Positions 1,481 to 40,033 of a stretch of 64,000 nt of DNA are shown here, in pieces; within the stretch, counting starts at the first letter, position 1; every line of letters begins with the position of its first letter. Origin of the DNA: an uncultured beta proteobacterium (GTDB lineage: Bacteria; Pseudomonadota; Gammaproteobacteria; Burkholderiales; Burkholderiaceae_F); the NCBI GenBank assembly GCA_963791315.1, contig CAWBRQ010000003.1:86339-150338 (forward strand). Reading direction: 5' to 3'. Both the position numbers and the translations under genes were made by a program. The notes under the pieces are model-generated. The model did no database searches. It was not told the origin of the DNA and was given only the letters and a program-made list of their open reading frames with translations.

Positions 1481-1510
1481 AAAAAGCGCCGAAGATCGGC
1501 GCTTTTGTTA
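1481..1510. terminator. Rho-independent terminator, potentially bidirectional
   Basis: The sequence is aaaaa-GCGCCGA-aga-TCGGCGC-tttt: a 7-bp GC stem (1486-1492 / 1496-1502) with an A-tract on one side and a T-tract on the other. It lies directly downstream of the minus-strand gene that ends at 1524. Confidence 0.6.
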
Positions 1511-1523
1511 TGAGACTGCGCGA

Positions 1524-2379
1524 CTACCTGCGCCGTGTGCGACTCACTCCGAGCAGTGTCAGCAGCCCCAGCAAATTCAGCCAACCAAGTGCGCCCGCGC
1601 CTGCGTTTAACGGCGCGTTTGCTGACGAGGTCGGCGCAGTCGAACCGCCGGCCCCGGTTGCAGTGCCCTGCAGGGTTATATCGCGTGCCGGCACGTTGCC
1701 GACAAAGGTGACGCGCCAGGTGGCGGTGCTAGCTCCGGCGGTCGGTTGGAACGAACTCAAAGCCTATCGCGCAGCTTGCGCCCGGTTGTATGACTCCGCC
1801 ATTCACGCACACGGTCTGGCCCGCGGCGACAGCTAGCGCTTCTAAAATTCGGCGACCTGTCCGGTGCTGGCATTTATCGCTGGATTTGCAAGCGTGATGG
1901 CTGTGCCAGCAGCGTTCGTTAAAACAACCGCGATCGGCGCACTAGTGGCACCCACGGCTGTGCTGGGAAATGTGACCGCACTTGGGGCCGCAGTCGGTGT
2001 CGGTAACGGAGCAAACGGTGGGGGTGCCGGCGGCGTGACTGCGACAACGAGGTGCGCCGCGACGTCGGACGTTTTCTGCGCTGACCATGGGGCGTTCTGA
2101 AACACGGCCATCACTTGGCCGGCGTTGCTGTTGATAGCGGCTTGAATGGCTGCGCGGATCGTCGCCTCACTTGCGCCAGGGAAGCGAATGTCTCGAAACG
2201 TCCCGGCAAAGCCGTGGCAGTCCTGGCAGCTTGCGTCCGCTGACTCTCTCCATGTAGGCAGTCGCGCCGTTAGCCGCGTTTCCGACCTGCGCTAACGCGC
2301 TCGTCGTGCCGCCGGCAGCGATGGCCAACATGGCATACAGCAATGTGCGCAAGCTCAACAACTTTTGACGAGTCAGCAT
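1524..2379 (-). pseudogene. Exported c-type-cytochrome-like protein with a beta-rich domain and a C-terminal hydrophobic anchor; split over at least 3 frames
   Basis: ORF 2167..2379 gives a signal peptide plus GNAANGATAY. A haem motif CQDCHG (about 2211-2228) appears only after a frame change near 2232-2250. ORF 1842..2114 gives a P-rich linker plus TFPSTAVGATSAPIAVVLTNAAGTAITL. My translation of a third frame gives LEALAVAAGQTVCVNGGVIQPGASCAIGFEFVPT. ORF 1524..1760 ends in GWLNLLGLLTLLGVSRTRRR. Confidence 0.5.
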
Positions 2380-2488
2380 AGGAGGGCAGAAACCGTAATC
2401 GGGTAGATGGCCAGTCTATCGACGCTGCAAGACGCTTACCGTCGTGCGAACGGCTTAGCGCCTCCCCCACAAATCTGGAATTCACCCG

Positions 2489-3568
2489 CTATGCAACCGC
2501 TTCTCGCTCGATAAGCGCGCGTTTGCGCTCGACTCCCCAGCGGTAGCCGCACAGTGATCCGTCGTTGCGAATCACGCGATGGCAAGGAATGGCCACCGCC
2601 AGCGGGTTGGCGCCGACCGCGGCGCCCACGGCGCGTACCGCCTTGGGTGCGCCGATGCGATTTGCTATCTGCGAATAGCTCACTGTCCTGCCCGCGGGAA
2701 TTTCGCGCAGTGCCTGCCACACCCGTTGCTGGAACGCAGTGCCCCGAACGTCGAGGGGCAAGTCGAGACCAAGTGCGGGCGCTTCAACGAATCCCACAAC
2801 CTTGGCCACTAGCTGCTCGAACTGCGAATCACCGCCGATCAGATGCGCGCGCGGGAATCGATCCTGCAGATCGCGTGCCAGCGCATCGGGATCGTCGCCG
2901 ATCAGGATCGCGCACACTCCGCGGTCACTGGCGGCTACCAGGATTGAGCCCAGCGAGCACTCGCCGATTGCGAAGCGAATTTCGGCACTCGCGCCGCCGG
3001 AGCGATACGCGGTCGGCGTCATGCCGAGGACGTCGTTCGATTGCTCGTAGAAGCGGCCACTCGAGTTGTAGCCGGCGCCATAGATCGCCTCGGTCACCGT
3101 GTTGCTTCGACTGAGTTCTGCCTTGACTCGCCTAGTGCGATGCGCGGCGGCATACTGCTTCGGGGTCAATCCGGTAGCCGCCTTAAATACTCGGTGCAGG
3201 TGAAACGTACTCAGACCCGCATGAGCGGCGAGTTGTGCAAGCGTGGGCGGTTGGTCAGCGTTTTCGATCGTGCGGCACAACTCGGAGACTGTCGCCGCGT
3301 GCTGCTCGGCTAACGGAAGTTGATCCGGTTTGCAGCGCCTGCAAGGGCGAAAGCCCGCGCGTTCGGCTGCTTCAGCGGATACGTGGAATTCCACGTTCTC
3401 GGGGCGCGCCCCACGCGCTGCGCACGACGGCCGGCAGTACACCCCCGTGGTCTTGACCGAGTAGAAAAATCGGCCATCGGCGTGCCGGTCGCGCCTAACA
3501 ACCGCGTCCCAGCGAGAGTCGCTGACGGTGGCCGCCGCCCGCATTTCTGATTTTGTTGCCATGTTCAC
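2489..3568 (-). CDS. ada: Bifunctional Ada: methylphosphotriester-DNA methyltransferase / AraC-type regulator / O6-methylguanine-DNA methyltransferase
   Basis: 359 aa. It has the N-terminal Zn/Cys region (YCRPSCAARGARPENV), an AraC HTH in the middle and a C-terminal PCHRV active-site motif (IPCHRVIRNDGSLCGYRWG). Confidence 0.9.
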   Translation of the reverse strand: MNMATKSEMRAAATVSDSRWDAVVRRDRHADGRFFYSVKTTGVYCRPSCAARGARPENVEFHVSAEAAERAGFRPCRRCKPDQLPLAEQHAATVSELCRTIENADQPPTLAQLAAHAGLSTFHLHRVFKAATGLTPKQYAAAHRTRRVKAELSRSNTVTEAIYGAGYNSSGRFYEQSNDVLGMTPTAYRSGGASAEIRFAIGECSLGSILVAASDRGVCAILIGDDPDALARDLQDRFPRAHLIGGDSQFEQLVAKVVGFVEAPALGLDLPLDVRGTAFQQRVWQALREIPAGRTVSYSQIANRIGAPKAVRAVGAAVGANPLAVAIPCHRVIRNDGSLCGYRWGVERKRALIEREAVA

Positions 3569-32788: not shown

Positions 32789-32812
32789 GATGCAGCGCAC
32801 GCCGCTCTCAAA

Positions 32813-33022
32813 CTAAATCTCCGGCTTCGCGTCCCATTTGGGCTTGGTCTCGCGGCCCCACTTTTTTGGGTCCTCGTTGTGCATCTTCTCCATGGCCTTT
32901 GCAGTATCGGGATGCCTCTCCATTACGTGCTTGGTCATGGTCTTGACCATTTCATCCCAGGTTGGCGCTGATAGCTTTTGATCGCAAGGTCCACCAAGTT
33001 CGCGGCAGCTCATAACCTTCAT
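32813..33022 (-). CDS. DUF1059-like small protein
   Basis: MKVMSCRELGGPCDQKLSAPTWDEMVKTMTKHVMERHPD resembles the DUF1059 pattern (MK..C.D.G..C). Confidence 0.55.
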   Translation of the reverse strand: MKVMSCRELGGPCDQKLSAPTWDEMVKTMTKHVMERHPDTAKAMEKMHNEDPKKWGRETKPKWDAKPEI

Positions 33023-33175
33023 CGGAACGCTCCATTTCCCGTGAATGAGACAGCGTTGCCGCAATCGACGTGCCCAAGTACAGCCAAGTGCCAGCGCGAC
33101 TCAGTTGCCGAAAATGGCACTGGACGTGCGTCAACGTCTCGAATCTGCGGTTGCGGTTTTTCTCGGATTTGTTAG

Positions 33176-33195
33176 TACTGTAGATATATACAGTA
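33176..33195. promoter_or_regulatory. LexA (SOS) box
   Basis: TACTGTAGATATATACAGTA has CTGT-N8-ACAG and differs at one position from the E. coli-type consensus TACTGTATATATATACAGTA. It sits in a 288-bp AT-richer non-coding gap between the DUF1059 gene and the first cassette. Confidence 0.65.
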
Positions 33196-33229
33196 TTCAG
33201 CCCGAAAGCCAGTACTCATGCGGCTTGGC

Positions 33230-33305
33230 GACGAACGGGCGGTCCGTGTTAAACCGCACCCGCCACATTAAGGAGCAGAATGGTGCGGTCTAAAACACGT
33301 TAGAG
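33230..33305 (+). other. attI-like / degenerate attC region ending in a GTTAGAG core
   Basis: An imperfect inverted repeat, GTGTTAAACCGCACC (33247-33261) / GGTGCGGTCTAAAACAC (33281-33297), is immediately followed by GTTAGAG (33299-33305, GTTRRRY-type). The left part, AACGGGCGGTC, resembles the type-B attC left arm. Confidence 0.3.
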
Positions 33306-33310
33306 CGCAA

Positions 33311-33697
33311 ATGGAACGCGCCATTGAATTGGTCAACTCGGGAGTTGGGCACGTTGCTCAGTTGACTGCGCTCTTGGCGAGCCTAAAGGCGCACGACATC
33401 GCGTTGTTCGAGCATGCAATATTTAATGCTGGGTTTTGGGAGCTTTGTGCTAGTTGTGGGACGCGCTCACGATCGATGAAATTCTCGTGGGACGGACGTG
33501 AGTTCTCCCTCGATGTGAGTCGAAGCGGTGTTGGCAATTTGAGCGCTACTCCGAAGTGGCAGCATGTCGCTAACACCACGGTTGCAAATGGCGAAGGCCT
33601 TTTCGAACAATACTGTCTCGCACGAGGAGAGAATTTGCGATCTAACATGTCGTTGGAGAGCCGACGCTCTACGAGCGCGGCTCAACTCAGACGTTAG
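33311..33697 (+). CDS. Cassette 1 ORF, hypothetical protein
   Basis: 128 aa. Its 3' end runs into attC1, as is common for cassette ORFs. No family was recognised. Confidence 0.5.
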   Translation: MERAIELVNSGVGHVAQLTALLASLKAHDIALFEHAIFNAGFWELCASCGTRSRSMKFSWDGREFSLDVSRSGVGNLSATPKWQHVANTTVANGEGLFEQYCLARGENLRSNMSLESRRSTSAAQLRR

Positions 33698-33699
33698 GC
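33640..33699 (+). repeat. attC site 1 (60 bp, classical short type)
   Basis: The sequence is ATCTAAC-ATGTC-GTTGGAGAGCCG...CGGCTCAACTC-AGAC-GTTAGGC. The R''/L''/L'/R' layout closely parallels textbook short attC sites. Confidence 0.8.
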
Positions 33700-33764
33700 C
33701 CCACCGACAACCACCGAGAGTGGGGTTCCAGCTCTCCCACACCTCAAGGCGAAGGAGAATTCGA

Positions 33765-34462
33765 ATGACTCAGGTTCCGCGACACTCGTCCGCATTTGCA
33801 TTGCTACTGGCAGGGCTCCTGATTACGGCACCAACTGGAGCGCTCACGCTCAAAGCACAGAAATCTTCGCGCCGACGACTGGTAGCGGACCTGGCGTGCT
33901 TTTGATCTCCGGGGTTTCCGGAACCGCCCTATACCAAGATTTCGGTCGGGCCGTTGCCGACTTGGGTTACACGGCGATCCTGGTGAGCGGAAAGGACGTA
34001 TCGAACCAACCAGGCGAGGCAACTGAAAACTTACGGAAGATACTTGCCACAATCCGCTCGGACTCAAGAGTGAAGCCTGGAAAGATCGCGGTCGTAGGCT
34101 TCTCGCTGGGCGGTGGAGGAGCACTACTCCACGCATCAAACGAACCCGAACTTTTTTCCGCCGTGGCCGCCTACTATCCCGCTGTGACTCGTTTGCCGAG
34201 CATCGCTGATACAGCAACGCGAGTGACTGTCCCGACGCTGATACTCGCCGGAGAGAAAGACAAATTCAATAACTGCTGCCTCATCGAGTCCATCCGCGAG
34301 TTCGAGGCGGCGGCCAAGGCAGGCGGACGGCCGGTAACGGTCGTCACATATCCGGAAGCTGAACACGCATTCAACCTTAAGGTGCCAATGTTCAGGCCCG
34401 ACGATGCGGCAGACGCGTGGCAAAGAGTGCAAGAGTTCTTGGTCAAATTCCGTCCAAAGTGA
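33765..34462 (+). pseudogene. Cassette 2: exported alpha/beta hydrolase (dienelactone hydrolase family), frameshifted at an A-run
   Basis: AAGGAG precedes an ATG at 33765 that opens a signal peptide, MTQVPRHSSAFALLLAGLLITAPTGALT. The enzyme body (EIFAPTTGSGPGVLLISGVSG ... VVGFSLGGGGAL ... EHAF) is one frame over (ORF 33896..34462). Adding one A to the AAA at 33861-33863 joins the two. Confidence 0.7.
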
Positions 34463-34463
34463 G

Positions 34464-34539
34464 GCCTAACCCCTCCATCGAGCGGACGTCCCCAGGCGGC
34501 TTCGCGCCCTTGGCCCGCCGCTCACGTCGGACGTTAGGC
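34464..34539 (+). repeat. attC site 2 (type A, 76 bp)
   Basis: GCCTAACCCCTCCATCGAGCGGACGTC...CCGCCGCTCACGTCGGACGTTAGGC. The flanks are conserved with attC4-6, and the centre is self-complementary. Confidence 0.85.
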
Positions 34540-34554
34540 CGCAGGCCATTCGCC

Positions 34555-35004
34555 ATGCGACTGTGGACGCTTCAGCCGCCAAGTACCTTGACGCGCAGGG
34601 CGTGGTCACGCTTTGGCGCGAGGCGCTACTCGCCCGCGAGGTGCTTCGTGGGCGCACCTATGGTTATCGCCAGACACCCGCAATTGATGCGGTTTCGGTC
34701 TTGTGCTTCGCCTCGCTCTGCGATCGAACCGATATCTTGCGCTTGTCTACGCCGAAGCTCGCTCTCGCGGCTACGCGTTCGATCAATCCAAGCTTGGCCG
34801 CCTGGGATCCGGACAACGCATTCTCGTCGCCGACGGACAATTGCAATACGAATGGGCTTGGCTTCTGAGTAAGTTCGGCGGCGCAGTCGCTTCTGTTCAT
34901 CGTCGTCACCTCGGTGTTTCCCATCCTGTGGCGCATTGCCACTGTTTCGATCACACCGGGTCCGATTGCCAGTGCGGCAGCATGTGCATGACGCTGCAGC
35001 CTAA
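34555..35004 (+). pseudogene. Cassette 3: pyrimidine-dimer DNA glycosylase family (T4 endonuclease V-like, Pyr_excise) remnant in at least 3 frames
   Basis: MRLWTLQP (frame of ORF 34417..34872) is followed by KYLDAQGVVTLWREALLAREVLRGRTYGYR (ORF 34563..34868). Then comes HPQLMRFR (first frame again), then YLALVYAEARSRGYAFDQSK...ILVADGQLQYEWAWLLSK (ORF 34703..35131). The 3' end is uncertain. Confidence 0.65.
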
Positions 35005-35078
35005 CCGGGCGGTCAACACGGACGCCGACCGGTGGGGCTGCGCACGCGGTCGGCCGCCGGTTACCTTACTCGTTAGGC
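34999..35078 (+). repeat. attC site 3 (type B, 80 bp)
   Basis: GCCTAACCGGGCGGTCAACACGGACGCC...GCCGCCGGTTACCTTACTCGTTAGGC. Its arms are shared with attC7. Confidence 0.8.
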
Positions 35079-35139
35079 GTCACCCTCGTTCGACGGGTCA
35101 CACAGACTCAAATGAGTTCTCTTGGCGCTAGGAGACGAT

Positions 35140-35517
35140 ATGACAGCCGAGTTCTTTGAAGAGAACAATCCGGGCACACGAACATTGCCGCGCTCACTGG
35201 TGACGAAGGCAGGCGGCTTGGTATTCGTTGGCGGCCAGGTAGCTAGAGACGAAAGCGGCGATGTCATCGCAGGCGGCATTGAAGCCCATACGCGTCAAAC
35301 GATGAAAAATGTCGCCGCCGCGCTCGCATTGGCCGGTTGCAGGCTCGAGGACGTGGTGAAGACCATGGTCTGGCTCGACGACGCACGCGATTTCGATGCG
35401 TTCAATCGCACTTACAGCGAGTTCTTCCCTGGAAACAAGCCAACGCGCTCGACAATACAGGCGAAGAACATGGTCGGCACCAAGGTCGAGATCGAGGTCA
35501 TTGCCTATAAGCCATGA
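35140..35517 (+). CDS. Cassette 4: RidA/YjgF/TdcF family protein
   Basis: AGGAGA precedes the ATG at 35140. The sequence is AGGLVFVGGQVARDESGDV...TRQTMKNVAAALALAGCRLEDVVKTMVWL...PTRSTIQA...VEIEVIA. Confidence 0.85.
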   Translation: MTAEFFEENNPGTRTLPRSLVTKAGGLVFVGGQVARDESGDVIAGGIEAHTRQTMKNVAAALALAGCRLEDVVKTMVWLDDARDFDAFNRTYSEFFPGNKPTRSTIQAKNMVGTKVEIEVIAYKP

Positions 35518-35578
35518 CGCCGATGGCAATCTCGTCTTCATGCGTGTTCAAAACGTCGCGCCTACTTTGTGCGGCGAC

Positions 35579-35656
35579 GCCTAACCCTTCCATCGAGCGG
35601 ACGTCCTCCGGCAAGCTGCGCTTGCCTGCGGCCGCCGCTCATGTCAAACGTTAGAC
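35579..35656 (+). repeat. attC site 4 (type A, 78 bp)
   Basis: GCCTAACCCTTCCATCGAGCGGACGTC-CTCCGGCAAGCTGCGCTTGCCTGCGG-CCGCCGCTCATGTCAAACGTTAGAC. Confidence 0.85.
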
Positions 35657-35702
35657 GCCACCACATCCCCACACTCTGATCGTCCAGTCGAAAGGTCAGC
35701 AA

Positions 35703-36073
35703 TTGAACAATGCAACCCAAATCATCTACCCAGCGCCATGTTCGTACACGGTCGCAGACGCTAGCAAATGGTTCATCGCATCTGTGAAGCTGATACCAGA
35801 CGCGGTCGCAAGCGTATTCGACAACAGGAGCGGCTACAAGAAGCCTGGAGCCTTAAGAGTCAACTGCGACTCGGGGCTGCTCTATCGCTCTACGATCAAG
35901 AACTAGTTCAGGAGTTCTTTGCCGTGTTCCCACTCCCATCAATGTCCGAACTCCTTGAAGGGGTCCGGTCGGGTGGGCTTGATACGACGTCTGCCCAGTC
36001 TGCCATCAATGCACTCTGCACGTTCACCGAGAGGCAAACAAGAGCATTCCCGGGCACCGTGGTGAAGCCATAG
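35703..36073 (+). pseudogene. Cassette 5: hypothetical protein, apparently split between two frames near 35885-35905
   Basis: ORF 35703..35906 (MNNATQIIYPAPCSYTVADASKWFIASVKLIPD...) looks coding and stops at 35906. The second half of ORF 35768..36073 (DQELVQEFFAVFPLPSMSELLEGVRSGGLDTTSAQSAINALC...) also looks coding, but its first half is Arg-rich. Confidence 0.4.
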
Positions 36074-36191
36074 GTCTGGAATTGCGAAACGTGAATGGGC
36101 AGAACTTTGTTATGACCGAGAATGGTTGGCAGCCTATGGATTCGAACTAAGCACTTCTCAAAGTGTTCTCGACGAGCGCTTCTGCAGTGGC

Positions 36192-36269
36192 GCCTAACCT
36201 CTCCATCGAGCGGACGTGCCAAGGGCCGCTTCGCGCCCCTTGCCCCGCCGCTCATGTCGTACGTTAGGC
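36192..36269 (+). repeat. attC site 5 (type A, 78 bp)
   Basis: GCCTAACCTCTCCATCGAGCGGACGTG-CCAAGGGCCGCTTCGCGCCCCTTGCC-CCGCCGCTCATGTCGTACGTTAGGC. Confidence 0.85.
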
Positions 36270-36310
36270 GTCAGAAGTCGCAGCACTTGGCGAAGAAGCG
36301 GGGCAGCATC

Positions 36311-36808
36311 ATGCTTACTGCACTTAGGAGATTCGGTATGCGCGCTTTGCTCACTCTTCTGGCAGCAATGCTGCTCTGTCCGCTAGTGCATGCAAATGAC
36401 GCGACAAAGGTCGTCGGCACATGGAAGCTGGTGTCGTTTGTCAATGAGTTCCAGGACGGGTCAGAGGCTAAAGGCGCCTACGGGAATCGTCCTACCGGTT
36501 ACGTCATCTTTACGCCTGAGGGACGCGTGATGTTTATGGTCGAAGCGGAAGGCCGCAAAGCGCCTGAGAACGACGAGCAGCGGGCCGCAGCGTTTCGTAC
36601 CATCATCGCCTACACCGGGCTGTACAAATTTGAAGGGGACAAGTTCATTACGAAAGTCGACGTCTCTTGGAATCCGAGTTGGGTTGGGACAGAGCAAGTC
36701 CGCGACTACAAACTCGACGGTGACACCTTCAAAGTGATCTCGCCTTGGGTCATGAGCCCAAACCTAGGCAAGATGACTCGAGCCACCGTCACCTGGGAAC
36801 GAAAGTAG
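36311..36808 (+). CDS. Cassette 6: exported lipocalin-like domain protein (PF13924-like)
   Basis: It has a signal peptide (MRALLTLLAAMLLCPLVHA) followed by VVGTWKLVSFVNEFQDGSEAKGAYGNRPTGYVIFTPEGRVMFM. The upstream part of ORF 36122..36808 crosses attC5 and is rejected. Confidence 0.7.
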   Translation: MLTALRRFGMRALLTLLAAMLLCPLVHANDATKVVGTWKLVSFVNEFQDGSEAKGAYGNRPTGYVIFTPEGRVMFMVEAEGRKAPENDEQRAAAFRTIIAYTGLYKFEGDKFITKVDVSWNPSWVGTEQVRDYKLDGDTFKVISPWVMSPNLGKMTRATVTWERK

Positions 36809-36838
36809 GCGTCCTCATCCAGCCCGATCGAAGCTGAC

Positions 36839-36916
36839 GCCTAACCTCTCCATCGAGCGGACGTCCCAAAGGCCGCTTCGCGCCCTTTGGCCCGCCGCTC
36901 ATGTCGAACGTTAGGC
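36839..36916 (+). repeat. attC site 6 (type A, 78 bp)
   Basis: GCCTAACCTCTCCATCGAGCGGACGTC-CCAAAGGCCGCTTCGCGCCCTTTGG-CCCGCCGCTCATGTCGAACGTTAGGC. Confidence 0.85.
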
Positions 36917-36971
36917 GGCCCGTTAACTCGGGGCTACACCGTTGAAGCGTTCATACGTACCGGAGATCTAA

Positions 36972-37463
36972 ATGAGACTACTCACTGCCTTACTAATCTT
37001 CGCGTTGACGGTCCCACTCGGCGCTCAGCCATTACCCGATGAAATCGCGATTCGCAACATTATCGAAGACGAGAACGCTACGTGGAACAACGGCGATGCG
37101 GTTGGCTACTCGCGCCACTTCGCCGAGGCGGGCACGTTTACGAACATCCGAGGTCAATTTTTCACCGGACATGCGGCGTTCCTCAAGCAACATGAAGTGA
37201 TCTTGGAAGGCATATTCAAGAATACGACGGTGAGCCAAGACATCGTCTCACTCAAATTCATCCGGCCTGATATCGCGATCGTCGAGACGCTGACAGCGGT
37301 CGCCGGCATCGCCCAGAGCGCTCCCGGCGTAACGAGAGATGACAAAGGGCGACTCCGCACACGACTTCTGCAGGTTCTCGCTAAGGAGGACGGAGTGTGG
37401 AAGATCGTCTCATATCACAATGTAGACGTGAAGCCGGGAATCCCGGTCCCTGATCCAAGATGA
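36972..37463 (+). CDS. Cassette 7: exported SnoaL-like / DUF4440 (SgcJ/EcaC-type) protein
   Basis: It has a signal peptide followed by IRNIIEDENATWNNGDAVGYSRHFAEAGTFTNIRG ... LQVLAKEDGVWKIVSYHN, the NTF2-like fold pattern. Confidence 0.75.
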   Translation: MRLLTALLIFALTVPLGAQPLPDEIAIRNIIEDENATWNNGDAVGYSRHFAEAGTFTNIRGQFFTGHAAFLKQHEVILEGIFKNTTVSQDIVSLKFIRPDIAIVETLTAVAGIAQSAPGVTRDDKGRLRTRLLQVLAKEDGVWKIVSYHNVDVKPGIPVPDPR

Positions 37464-37484
37464 TGTTTCTTCAAACGGCGGGCC

Positions 37485-37566
37485 GCCTAACCCGGCGGTC
37501 AACGCGGACGCGCCACCGGCGTGGCTTCGCCCGCGCCGTGGTCGCCGGTTACCTTACACGTTAGAT
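37485..37566 (+). repeat. attC site 7 (type B, 82 bp)
   Basis: GCCTAACCCGGCGGTCAACGCGGACGCG...GTCGCCGGTTACCTTACACGTTAGAT. Confidence 0.8.
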
Positions 37567-37979: not shown

Positions 37980-38576
37980 ATGAAACGTCCCGTCGCCATT
38001 GTCGCGTTTGCTGCCCAGTTCCTGATGCCGTGTCTCGCGGGTGATCTCGAGGAAGGCGTGAAGTTTCAGCAGCGCAAGGACTATGCAAAGGCAGTCGTCG
38101 CCTTTGAGAGGGCCGCTGCACATGGAAGCGTCGACGCCCAACGGCAACTGGGATTCATGTACTACCACGGAGAGGGTGTCACCCAAGACAATCAGCGCGC
38201 GACCTCACTATTCGAAAGGGCTGCCGAGGCTGGCGACATCCAATCAGCCTCCAACTTGGGCATGATGTACGAGTTCGGAATGGGTGTGCGTCAAGACGAC
38301 AGTCGCGCGGCCTCGTGGTACCAGAGGGCTGCGGAATTGGGGGATCCCGGCTCGCAATTCAGAATCAGCGTGATGTACTACCAAGGCCAAGGCGTGCCTC
38401 GTGATCGTGTCGAGGCTGCGAAGTGGTGGACTATTGCGATGAGTCAAGGACCTGAATGGGCGGAAAAGTTTCGCCCGTCGGTCGCATCGGCGGAGGCCAA
38501 GCTCACACCTGAGGAAAATGCGGAAGGAAAGAGCCGGGCAGCGGAGTGGCTCAATGCGCGCAAGTCCAAGAAGTGA
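37980..38576 (+). CDS. Exported Sel1-repeat (SLR/TPR-like) protein
   Basis: The start is MKRPVAIVAFAAQFLMPCLAG. Four Sel1 repeats follow (A..W...AA..G...AQ..LG.MY..G.GV..D). The upstream part of ORF 37701..38576 is not credible. Confidence 0.8.
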   Translation: MKRPVAIVAFAAQFLMPCLAGDLEEGVKFQQRKDYAKAVVAFERAAAHGSVDAQRQLGFMYYHGEGVTQDNQRATSLFERAAEAGDIQSASNLGMMYEFGMGVRQDDSRAASWYQRAAELGDPGSQFRISVMYYQGQGVPRDRVEAAKWWTIAMSQGPEWAEKFRPSVASAEAKLTPEENAEGKSRAAEWLNARKSKK

Positions 38577-38653: not shown

Positions 38654-40033
38654 CTACAAGCCAACCGCGTCCGTGACCAGGCGCCTTAATTCGCGGCGCA
38701 ATTTGTCACGCACCGGTGCGAGCTTGCGACTGCGATTCAGGTTGTCGAGCTCGAACGGATCGCTCTCCAGATCGTAGAGTTCGTCGAGCTCCCCCGCCTT
38801 GCCCCGGTTGACCCAATGGATGTACTTGTAGCGATCGGTACGCACCGCTTTGTATGTCATGCCCACCAGCCACGGCATCGCTTGTTCGGCCCAGTATTCA
38901 ATCAGTATCGACTTGCGCCACGCCGCACGGCGGGCGGCAAACAACGGCAGCAACGATCGGCCCTGGATCTGCGAACCCGGTTTACCTCCTGCTAGTTCGA
39001 TCAGCGTCGGCGCGAGGTCCTGGCAGATGACAAGTTCGCGTCGGCGTGAGCCTGCCTTCACCCGGCGCGGATAGCGAACCACGAACGGCGAGCGAATGCC
39101 CTCTTCGTACGCGAAACGCCGCTCGGGACCGAGTGCATGCTCGCCAAAGAAGAAGCCGTTGTCGCTGAAGAAAACAATGAACGTGTTGTCCAGCTCGCCG
39201 CTTTGCTGCAGCACATCGACGATCGCGCCGACTCCCTCATCGACCGCCGCCATCATCCTGGCGCGCAGGCGAATCTCTTCCTGCTCGCCCGATTGCAGCG
39301 CGGACAGGATCGCTTGCGACGCGGGACCTGACTTCAGCGCGAAACTCTCGGCCCACGCCGGCTTGCTCTTGATCACCTCGGCCGGCGGCAACATGTTCGG
39401 TGTGCGCGGGAACACGGCGTCGCGATACAGATCCTTATGGCGCTCCGCGACGACGTAACCCCCTTGTGCCGAGATGCGCAACGTGCCGTCAGCCGCTTGC
39501 TCGGCGTCGGGGTGCACCGCCTTGTGCGCGAAAAAAAGCGAGAACGGCTTCTTGCGCTTGCGCTTCAGAAAATCGACCGCCAGCCCGTTCATGAGGTCGG
39601 TGATGTAGCCGCTGTGCTGCACGTAGTCGCCATCGTGATTCAGCCGCGGGTCATTTAGCTTTCCGTGCCCGTCATAGCTCACCCACGTGTCGTAACCGGG
39701 CCGCGGCATGCCGTCATTGCCCATGTGCCACTTGCCGATGTGAGCGGTCTCGTACCCGAGCCGCTGCAGCTCGAGGTGGTAGTTCGGCAAGCGATGGCTC
39801 ATCGCATCGCGCGCGACGTTGTCGATGATTCCGTGCCGGCTGGCGTACTGACCGCTGACGATCGAAGCGCGATTCGGCGAACAGATCGGCGTCGTGTGAA
39901 AAGCGCGCTCGAAGATCGCGCCTTCGTGCGCAAGCCGATCGATGTGCGGCGTCTTCATGTAGGGATGGCCACCGGCGCCAAACTCGTCGTAGCGCAGATC
40001 GTCAATCAGAATCACGAGAAAATTGGGCTTCAT
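38654..40033 (-). CDS. Cys-type sulfatase (arylsulfatase / N-acetylglucosamine-6-sulfatase-like)
   Basis: MKPNFLVILIDDLRYDE ... the formylglycine motif CSPNRASIVSG ... GKWH. No N-terminal signal peptide is visible. Confidence 0.85.
   Translation of the reverse strand: MKPNFLVILIDDLRYDEFGAGGHPYMKTPHIDRLAHEGAIFERAFHTTPICSPNRASIVSGQYASRHGIIDNVARDAMSHRLPNYHLELQRLGYETAHIGKWHMGNDGMPRPGYDTWVSYDGHGKLNDPRLNHDGDYVQHSGYITDLMNGLAVDFLKRKRKKPFSLFFAHKAVHPDAEQAADGTLRISAQGGYVVAERHKDLYRDAVFPRTPNMLPPAEVIKSKPAWAESFALKSGPASQAILSALQSGEQEEIRLRARMMAAVDEGVGAIVDVLQQSGELDNTFIVFFSDNGFFFGEHALGPERRFAYEEGIRSPFVVRYPRRVKAGSRRRELVICQDLAPTLIELAGGKPGSQIQGRSLLPLFAARRAAWRKSILIEYWAEQAMPWLVGMTYKAVRTDRYKYIHWVNRGKAGELDELYDLESDPFELDNLNRSRKLAPVRDKLRRELRRLVTDAVGL

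Follow-up and report, generated by a model that had tools for sequence, protein, structure and literature searches.

A LexA box probably left stranded by integrase loss beside a chromosomal attI site and cassette array

Introduction

What is a LexA box doing at the edge of a cassette array that has no integrase gene? In class 1 and Vibrio integrons it is established that LexA represses the integron integrase gene (intI) through a box at the integrase promoter (PintI), and this control has been inferred to be ancestral (PMC3108266, PMC8876359). A consensus-like LexA box can also be non-functional, as at intI2 (PMC8876359).

The question is raised by a 64-kb stretch of DNA, here called the window. 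In it, a LexA box sits in a 288-bp gap between a minus-strand open reading frame for a DUF1059 protein and the first open reading frame of a cassette array (ATG at 33311). Comparison with related integrons suggests that the box is very probably the stranded LexA operator of a former PintI, and that the array is a CALIN born of integrase loss. Such a box is a known kind of operator left stranded and not a new circuit.

The host appears to be Burkholderiaceae-like. The best named relatives of a helicase encoded in the window are Burkholderiaceae MAGs (85-86% identity), and a TctC/Bug-family receptor on the left flank of the locus fits Burkholderiales. The same flank encodes a DUF4124 protein and an unknown protein.

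The LexA box and its surroundings

LexA of beta- and gamma-proteobacteria recognises the motif CTGT-N8-ACAG, and the related beta-proteobacterial MAG L101 has it ahead of its own lexA gene as well. The box in the window, TACTGTAGATATATACAGTA, is of this type and has one mismatch to the 20-bp LexA consensus TACTGTATATATATACAGTA. The initial annotation, made from the sequence alone, had placed it with that single mismatch at 33176-33195, exactly where it is found. The distance to the attI core GTTAGAG, put there at about 105 bp, is 103 nt when counted, with the box on the left.

The features around the box are as follows.

32807-33076, minus strand: DUF1059 (small metal-binding protein) module, Pfam PF06348
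33077-33151: junction filler of 75 bp between the integron remnant and the DUF1059 module
33152-33163, minus strand: remnant of intI codons 1-4, AGA AAA ACC GCA, from alignment with L127, L133 and intI1
33164-33175, minus strand: homolog of the 12-nt intI leader, CTAACAAATCCG
33169-33194, plus strand: counterpart of class 1 P2 in its inactive form, TTGTTA-14-TACAGT
33176-33195: LexA (SOS) box
33196-33223, minus strand: upstream part of the former intI promoter, diverged
33224-33305, plus strand: attI site, with the core GTTAGAG at 33299-33305
33270-33303, plus strand: ORF-11-like mini-ORF in attI, with the Shine-Dalgarno sequence (SD) AAGGAG and a start at ATG 33280 or GTG 33283
33306-37566, plus strand: cassette array with seven attC sites (CALIN)
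33640-33699, 34464-34539, 34999-35078, 35579-35656, 36192-36269, 36839-36916 and 37485-37566, plus strand: attC sites

A LexA box of an integrase promoter is expected between intI and attI, at about -100 to +50 of the intI start (PMC3108266). The box in the window lies 12 nt upstream of the remnant intI start codon (AGA, 33161-33163) and 103 nt from the attI core, within these limits.

Related platforms with an intact integrase gene

Relatives of the locus were sought in several ways. When a genome collection was scanned with the attC word TCCATCGAGCGGACGT, most of the matches were chance ones in GC-rich genomes, but five loci still emerged, L101, L125, L080, L077 and L049. In L125, from a Caldimonas MAG, intI is followed by the box TACTGTACGTCCATACAGTA, 113 nt, GTTAGAG and cassettes. 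In L101, from a beta-proteobacterial MAG, intI is followed by the box TACTGAATATTCATACAGTA, 99 nt and GTTAGGC. Both arrays carry attC sites that are nearly the same as sites in the window, with 96% identity for the first attC of L125 and 97.5% for an attC of L101. The other three loci have no LexA box, and the intI of L049 is broken; the loss of LexA control is known to be patchy (PMC3108266), and these loci agree with that.

A metagenome scan with the pattern TACTGT-N8-ACAGTA-N{90,120}-ACGTTAGAG gave six contigs. In three of them, L127, L128 and L129, an intI start lies 10-12 nt from the box, and for L127 and L128 integrase homology was found by tblastn. Five further loci, L133-L137, are the contexts of the closest IntI proteins; all of them share one and the same box, TACTGTATAAAAATACAGTA, which precedes the intI ATG by 12-14 nt. 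The distance is 12 nt in both L127 and L133.

The gap in the window is homologous to the region between intI and attI in these relatives. Positions 33152-33307 are 85% identical to the intergenic region of L127 (158 bp, E 4e-43), 83% identical to that of L133 (153 bp, E 7e-41) and 75-76% identical to those of L135 and L134. An alignment with relatives that retain intI had been proposed in the initial annotation; once made, it places the homologous region next to intI in L127 and L133. Read in the direction of intI, the box of L127 is followed by TTAACAAATCCG and then by ATG AAA AGC GCA.

The spacing between box and core is also alike. It is 103 nt in the window and in L127 and 105 nt in class 1, and L101 and L125 have spacings of 99-113 nt. 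The same box occupies the same position in at least ten integron platforms. The box that precedes intI in L127 and L133-L137 is the positional homolog of the one in the window, and the boxes of L125, L101, L128, L129, L138, L140 and class 1 are analogous to it. The IntI proteins of the relatives are about 58-59% identical to IntI1 and about 64% identical to IntI3.

A blastn search of the gap against plasmids, an Rfam scan of the window and exact-sequence look-ups of three window proteins gave no match.

The missing integrase gene and the breakpoint

No integron integrase is detectable in the 64-kb window. A tblastn search with three IntI proteins validated against NCBIfam gave a best E of 0.57, which bears out the earlier claim that intI is missing while the box and the attI-like region remain. 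The queries were proteins from the fetched loci L127, L101 and L125, which score 299-438 bits against TIGR02249 (cutoff 265). A search with an IntI1 sequence found nothing either (best E 0.086). The genes imuA, imuB, dnaE2 and lexA are not present in the window.

What is left of the gene is its very beginning. The position of the start codon reads AGA in the window and ATG in intact relatives, and three further codons are recognisable. Codons 1-4 are ATG AAA AGC GCA in L127, ATG AAA ACC GCA in L133 and ATG AAA ACC GCC in intI1. Homology to the intI platform ends at 33152.

The next 75 bp, the filler at 33077-33151, have no significant similarity to intI or to the intI flanks in any relative (40-43% identity), and no match among the fetched loci. 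The possibility that the filler is decayed intI was rejected, as 40-291 of 500 shuffles reach its local alignment scores. Beyond the filler lies the DUF1059 module, made up of the gene at 32813-33022 and 54 nt of its native upstream sequence.

The endpoint of the break thus falls in 33077-33151, just past codon 4. The initial annotation had proposed a deletion of intI with an endpoint between 33023 and 33175; the endpoint holds and is narrowed, while the deletion itself is one of two options, since removal of intI and its separation by rearrangement would look alike within 64 kb.

Uneven conservation of the former promoter

Differences of the window were counted at alignment columns that are invariant in four intact relatives (L127 and L133-L135). 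The changed columns are:

attI: 2 of 59
12-nt leader: 1 of 9
codons 1-4: 2 of 9
-35 segment, 33196-33223: 8 of 23
box spacer: 3 of 8
LexA half-sites: 0 of 12

The positions specific to the promoter, that is the spacer and the -35 segment, have changed at 11 of 31 columns compared with 2 of 59 in attI (Fisher p 9e-5). In the -35 segment the window is 57-64% identical to the relatives, which are 82-93% identical among themselves. The presumed hexamers of PintI on the minus strand, TGGCTT (33206-33211) and TATATC (33183-33188) with a spacer of 17 nt, would place the -10 element inside the box, and they are weaker than the TTGCTT and TAAAAA of the relatives. Such divergence is what would be expected if PintI came under weaker constraint once intI was lost.

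The LexA half-sites differ in this respect from the promoter-specific positions (0 of 12 versus 11 of 31, Fisher p 0.019, in a single intI-less lineage), and two of the three spacer changes are toward the LexA consensus. The intact half-sites and the spacer shift hint that the site is perhaps still under selection and not a pure relic. These patterns could be due to chance, to constraint during most of the time since divergence, or to LexA binding that is still selected.

Consensus scanning for sigma-70 promoters finds no match on either strand, in the window or in the intact relatives, the candidate TGGCTT-17-TATATC included. A terminator scan likewise finds nothing in the window or in the intact relatives. 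Because the intact relatives also score none, the promoter scan is uninformative on promoter questions.

The attI site and the cassette array

The attI site of the window is 89-90% identical to those of L127 and L133, and the first attC-bounded cassette begins directly after its core. Being so well kept, this site might serve an integrase in trans.

Within attI lies a mini-ORF that resembles ORF-11 of attI1 (PMC8876359). Its codons are CGG TCT AAA ACA CGT, and its stop codon TAG (33301-33303) forms positions 3-5 of the core. In the relatives the reading frame is kept: L127 and L133 have a GTG start, L135 has the synonymous change TCT to TCG, and L134 has a TTG start and the synonymous change ACA to ACG. 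The ATG of the first cassette (33311) has no SD of its own, which makes translational coupling from the mini-ORF to the first cassette plausible.

The seven attC sites end in RYYYAAC...GTTRRRY, and the cassettes lie in one orientation. At least three types of attC sequence are present in the array. One type is represented by four near-identical sites of 76-78 bp. A second type of 80-82 bp is found at 34999-35078 and 37485-37566. The 60-bp type at 33640-33699 is 95% identical to an attC of L134. The array ends ahead of a minus-strand sulfatase gene (38654-40033). The last open reading frame, which encodes Sel1 repeats (about 37981-38576), has no recognisable attC behind it.

Cassette 2 (33766-34462, plus strand) encodes a dienelactone-hydrolase-like protein (PF01738). 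It seems to be split by a frameshift, with the ATG at 33766 (a signal-peptide-like start) out of frame with the domain open reading frame at 33896-34462. Cassette 3 (34563-34868, plus strand) has a domain match to pyrimidine dimer DNA glycosylase (PF03013, E 1e-6), a DNA-repair function borne on an integron cassette.

Alternative explanations

Could the box have nothing to do with an integron? One way is chance. The window has a single match to the bare core CTGT-N8-ACAG, which by itself is not significant, because 40 of 100 shuffles give at least one core (mean 0.52 per shuffle). An AT-rich palindrome without biological meaning is nevertheless hardly conceivable here, as one 20-mer in the window comes within three mismatches of the consensus against none in 100 shuffles, and as the site recurs at its position across the integron platforms. 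Another way is that the box is native to DUF1059, or to some other SOS gene outside integrons, and that the array is nearby by coincidence. The location of the box in the gap upstream of DUF1059 would suit this idea, which is still extremely improbable. The conserved DUF1059 module reaches only as far as 33076, which leaves 100 nt between it and the box, and therefore the box is not part of the module; the box and both its flanks are homologous to integron platforms. Colinearity with the closest DUF1059 homolog (L006, 96% amino-acid identity) is limited to 32807-33076 (89% over 271 bp), L006 has no integron or LexA box there, and none of six fetched DUF1059 loci has CTGT-N8-ACAG. DUF1059 homologs are abundant in soil metagenomes, in unrelated neighbourhoods. 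Synteny was also tried through DUF1059, and it yielded unrelated contexts without a LexA box and the left boundary at 33076 only.

Two other explanations accept the integron origin and give the box a new task. Selection may have preserved LexA binding once intI was lost, so that the box now gates SOS-inducible transcription from the remnant PintI into DUF1059. This gene is co-oriented with the former intI, its start lies 153 nt downstream of the box, and a terminator scan finds no terminator-like site between them, so that read-through from a LexA-gated remnant promoter would be possible. The gene has kept only 54 nt of native upstream sequence, and its own promoter may be truncated; the intact half-sites and the spacer nearer to consensus point the same way. 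If true, the event would have added a new gene, DUF1059, to the SOS regulon of the lineage. The explanation is rather unlikely, as the -35 segment is the most diverged part of PintI, its presumed hexamers have weakened, DUF1059 homologs elsewhere have no LexA box, and the statistics come from a single intI-less lineage. SOS control of the cassettes, which the initial annotation had suggested as the second possibility, is highly unlikely. In this case the box would control a rightward promoter, and there is a -35-like TTGTTA (33169-33174) on the cassette strand, with a -10-like TACAGT or CAGTAT overlapping the box; the mini-ORF with its strong SD also suggests rightward transcripts of attI that are meant for translation. 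Yet TTGTTA, a 14-nt spacer and TACAGT (33189-33194) make up the exact counterpart of class 1 P2, the sole rightward promoter-like element under the box. P2 is inactive with a spacer of 14 bp; to fire, it needs a GGG insertion that brings the spacer to 17 bp and at the same time disrupts the LexA site (PMC3108266). Neither does LexA control the cassette promoters of class 1 integrons (PMC3108266). No rightward promoter passes the consensus scan, a scan of low power that finds none in intact relatives either, and no conserved rightward cassette promoter between box and attI was found in the alignment.

A model for the origin of the locus

The stranded PintI operator remains the preferred explanation, because of the homology to intact platforms and because the layout matches that of the class 1 5'-CS. 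The process would start with a chromosomal platform of the class 1/3 kind, in which LexA at the box would repress intI. In several intact relatives LexA probably also represses an imuA-imuB-dnaE2 operon fused behind intI.

In the lineage of the window, intI would then have been removed or separated, with a break just after codon 4 (about 33152). The start codon ATG would have mutated to AGA, and the 75-bp filler would join the integron remnant to the unrelated DUF1059 gene. The box, attI and the cassette array would be left behind as a CALIN. Most likely the box can still be bound by LexA and its original target is gone. The sequence, the homology, the breakpoint and the lack of intI in the window are read from the DNA itself; that LexA binds, that a promoter once worked here and that the box now has no target is inferred.

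Comparison with known systems

The closest likeness is to the class 1 5'-CS. In the class 1 comparator (L141) the box GACTGTACAAAAAAACAGTC is followed by 10 nt and ATG AAA ACC GCC, it lies 105 nt from the attI1 core, and TTGTTA-14-TACAGT overlaps it on the cassette strand. The window and its relatives share with class 1 the order and spacing of the parts (LexA box 10-12 nt upstream of intI, beginning ATG AAA ACC GC), the distance of 103-105 nt between box and attI core, TTGTTA-14-TACAGT over the box (PMC3108266, PMC8876359), and a short SD-led open reading frame that ends at the TAG of the GTTAG core. The P2 counterpart points to a deep homology of the soil platform with the class 1 5'-CS.

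There are also differences from class 1. The intI of the window is gone except for four codons, and the IntI proteins of the relatives share only about 58% identity with IntI1 and about 64% with IntI3. No resistance genes are found in the cassettes, and the setting is the chromosome of a Burkholderiaceae-like soil bacterium. With 6-7 codons, the mini-ORF is shorter than ORF-11, which has 11. By intI1/attI1 identity the locus is not a member of class 1; its intergenic region shares layout and short motifs only.

Compared with a complete integron, the window has the attI and the attC-bounded cassettes, and it has no intI next to attI. The array is a CALIN by the definition of a minimum of two attC sites without an intI in the surrounding 4 kb (Cury et al. 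2016, PMC4889954). It holds seven attC sites, and no intI is detectable over that distance or anywhere in the 64 kb. Loss of intI is one proposed origin of CALINs (Cury et al. 2016, PMC4889954). The origin of most of them is unknown, because 95% have no recognisable intI pseudogene nearby (PMC4889954). Here, by contrast, the origin can be proved from non-coding relics that are invisible to searches with IntI profiles. The LexA box, the 12-nt leader, the four codons and attI would prove descent from a complete, SOS-controlled integron, and a search for such relics is applicable to other CALINs.

An operator that persists beside a non-functional integrase locus is also found in pMUR050 (Cambray et al. 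2011, PMC3108266). There the body of intI1 remains, and experiments have demonstrated both LexA binding and regulation, whereas in the window the gene body is gone and the case is built from sequence. The superintegron of Vibrio cholerae is likewise chromosomal, with a LexA box over the intI promoter between intI and attI (PMC3108266, PMC8876359). It belongs to another integrase clade, and it retains an intact intIA that is SOS-inducible.

The locus also offers a natural setting in which to ask if an operator can persist longer than its gene. It is otherwise an expected consequence of known integron biology.

SOS and repair genes behind intI in relatives

A side observation concerns the closest intact relatives, in which SOS mutagenesis genes are found behind intI on the same strand. 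No report of this linkage was found in a full-text literature search, and it is absent in L138 (Povalibacter uvarum) and L140.

In L135 (273-4707), imuA lies 16 nt downstream of intI (NF033429, 179 bits) and is followed by an imuB-like gene for a Y-family polymerase (IMS) and by dnaE2 (PRK05672-like). No LexA box is seen in L135 except the one upstream of intI, and the gap of 16 nt before imuA is too small for another. Because of this sole box and the lack of room before imuA, the genes intI, imuA, imuB and dnaE2 likely form a single SOS operon.

Other relatives show variations of the arrangement. In L134 (5245-7196), imuA follows after a similar gap, and then the contig ends. In L133 (6001-11062), imuA and a gene for a dnaE2-like polymerase are found farther downstream. 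In L125 (143-2400), dnaE2 is directly behind intI.

In L101 (71-2505), lexA and then imuA are found behind intI. The lexA gene of this related beta-proteobacterial MAG (TIGR00498, 213 bits) is preceded by the operator TACTGTCAATGTATACAGTA (1478-1497), which overlaps the stop-codon region of intI (open reading frame 1483-2505, minus strand). In L101, therefore, part of the sequence is common to the end of intI and the lexA promoter.

In L140 (7001-8735), a further integron of the wider group, intI is preceded by the box TACTGTATATAACAACAGGT, and a gene for an HhH-GPD DNA glycosylase lies 28 nt downstream of intI on the same strand. This glycosylase gene is a second kind of DNA-repair gene coupled to intI.
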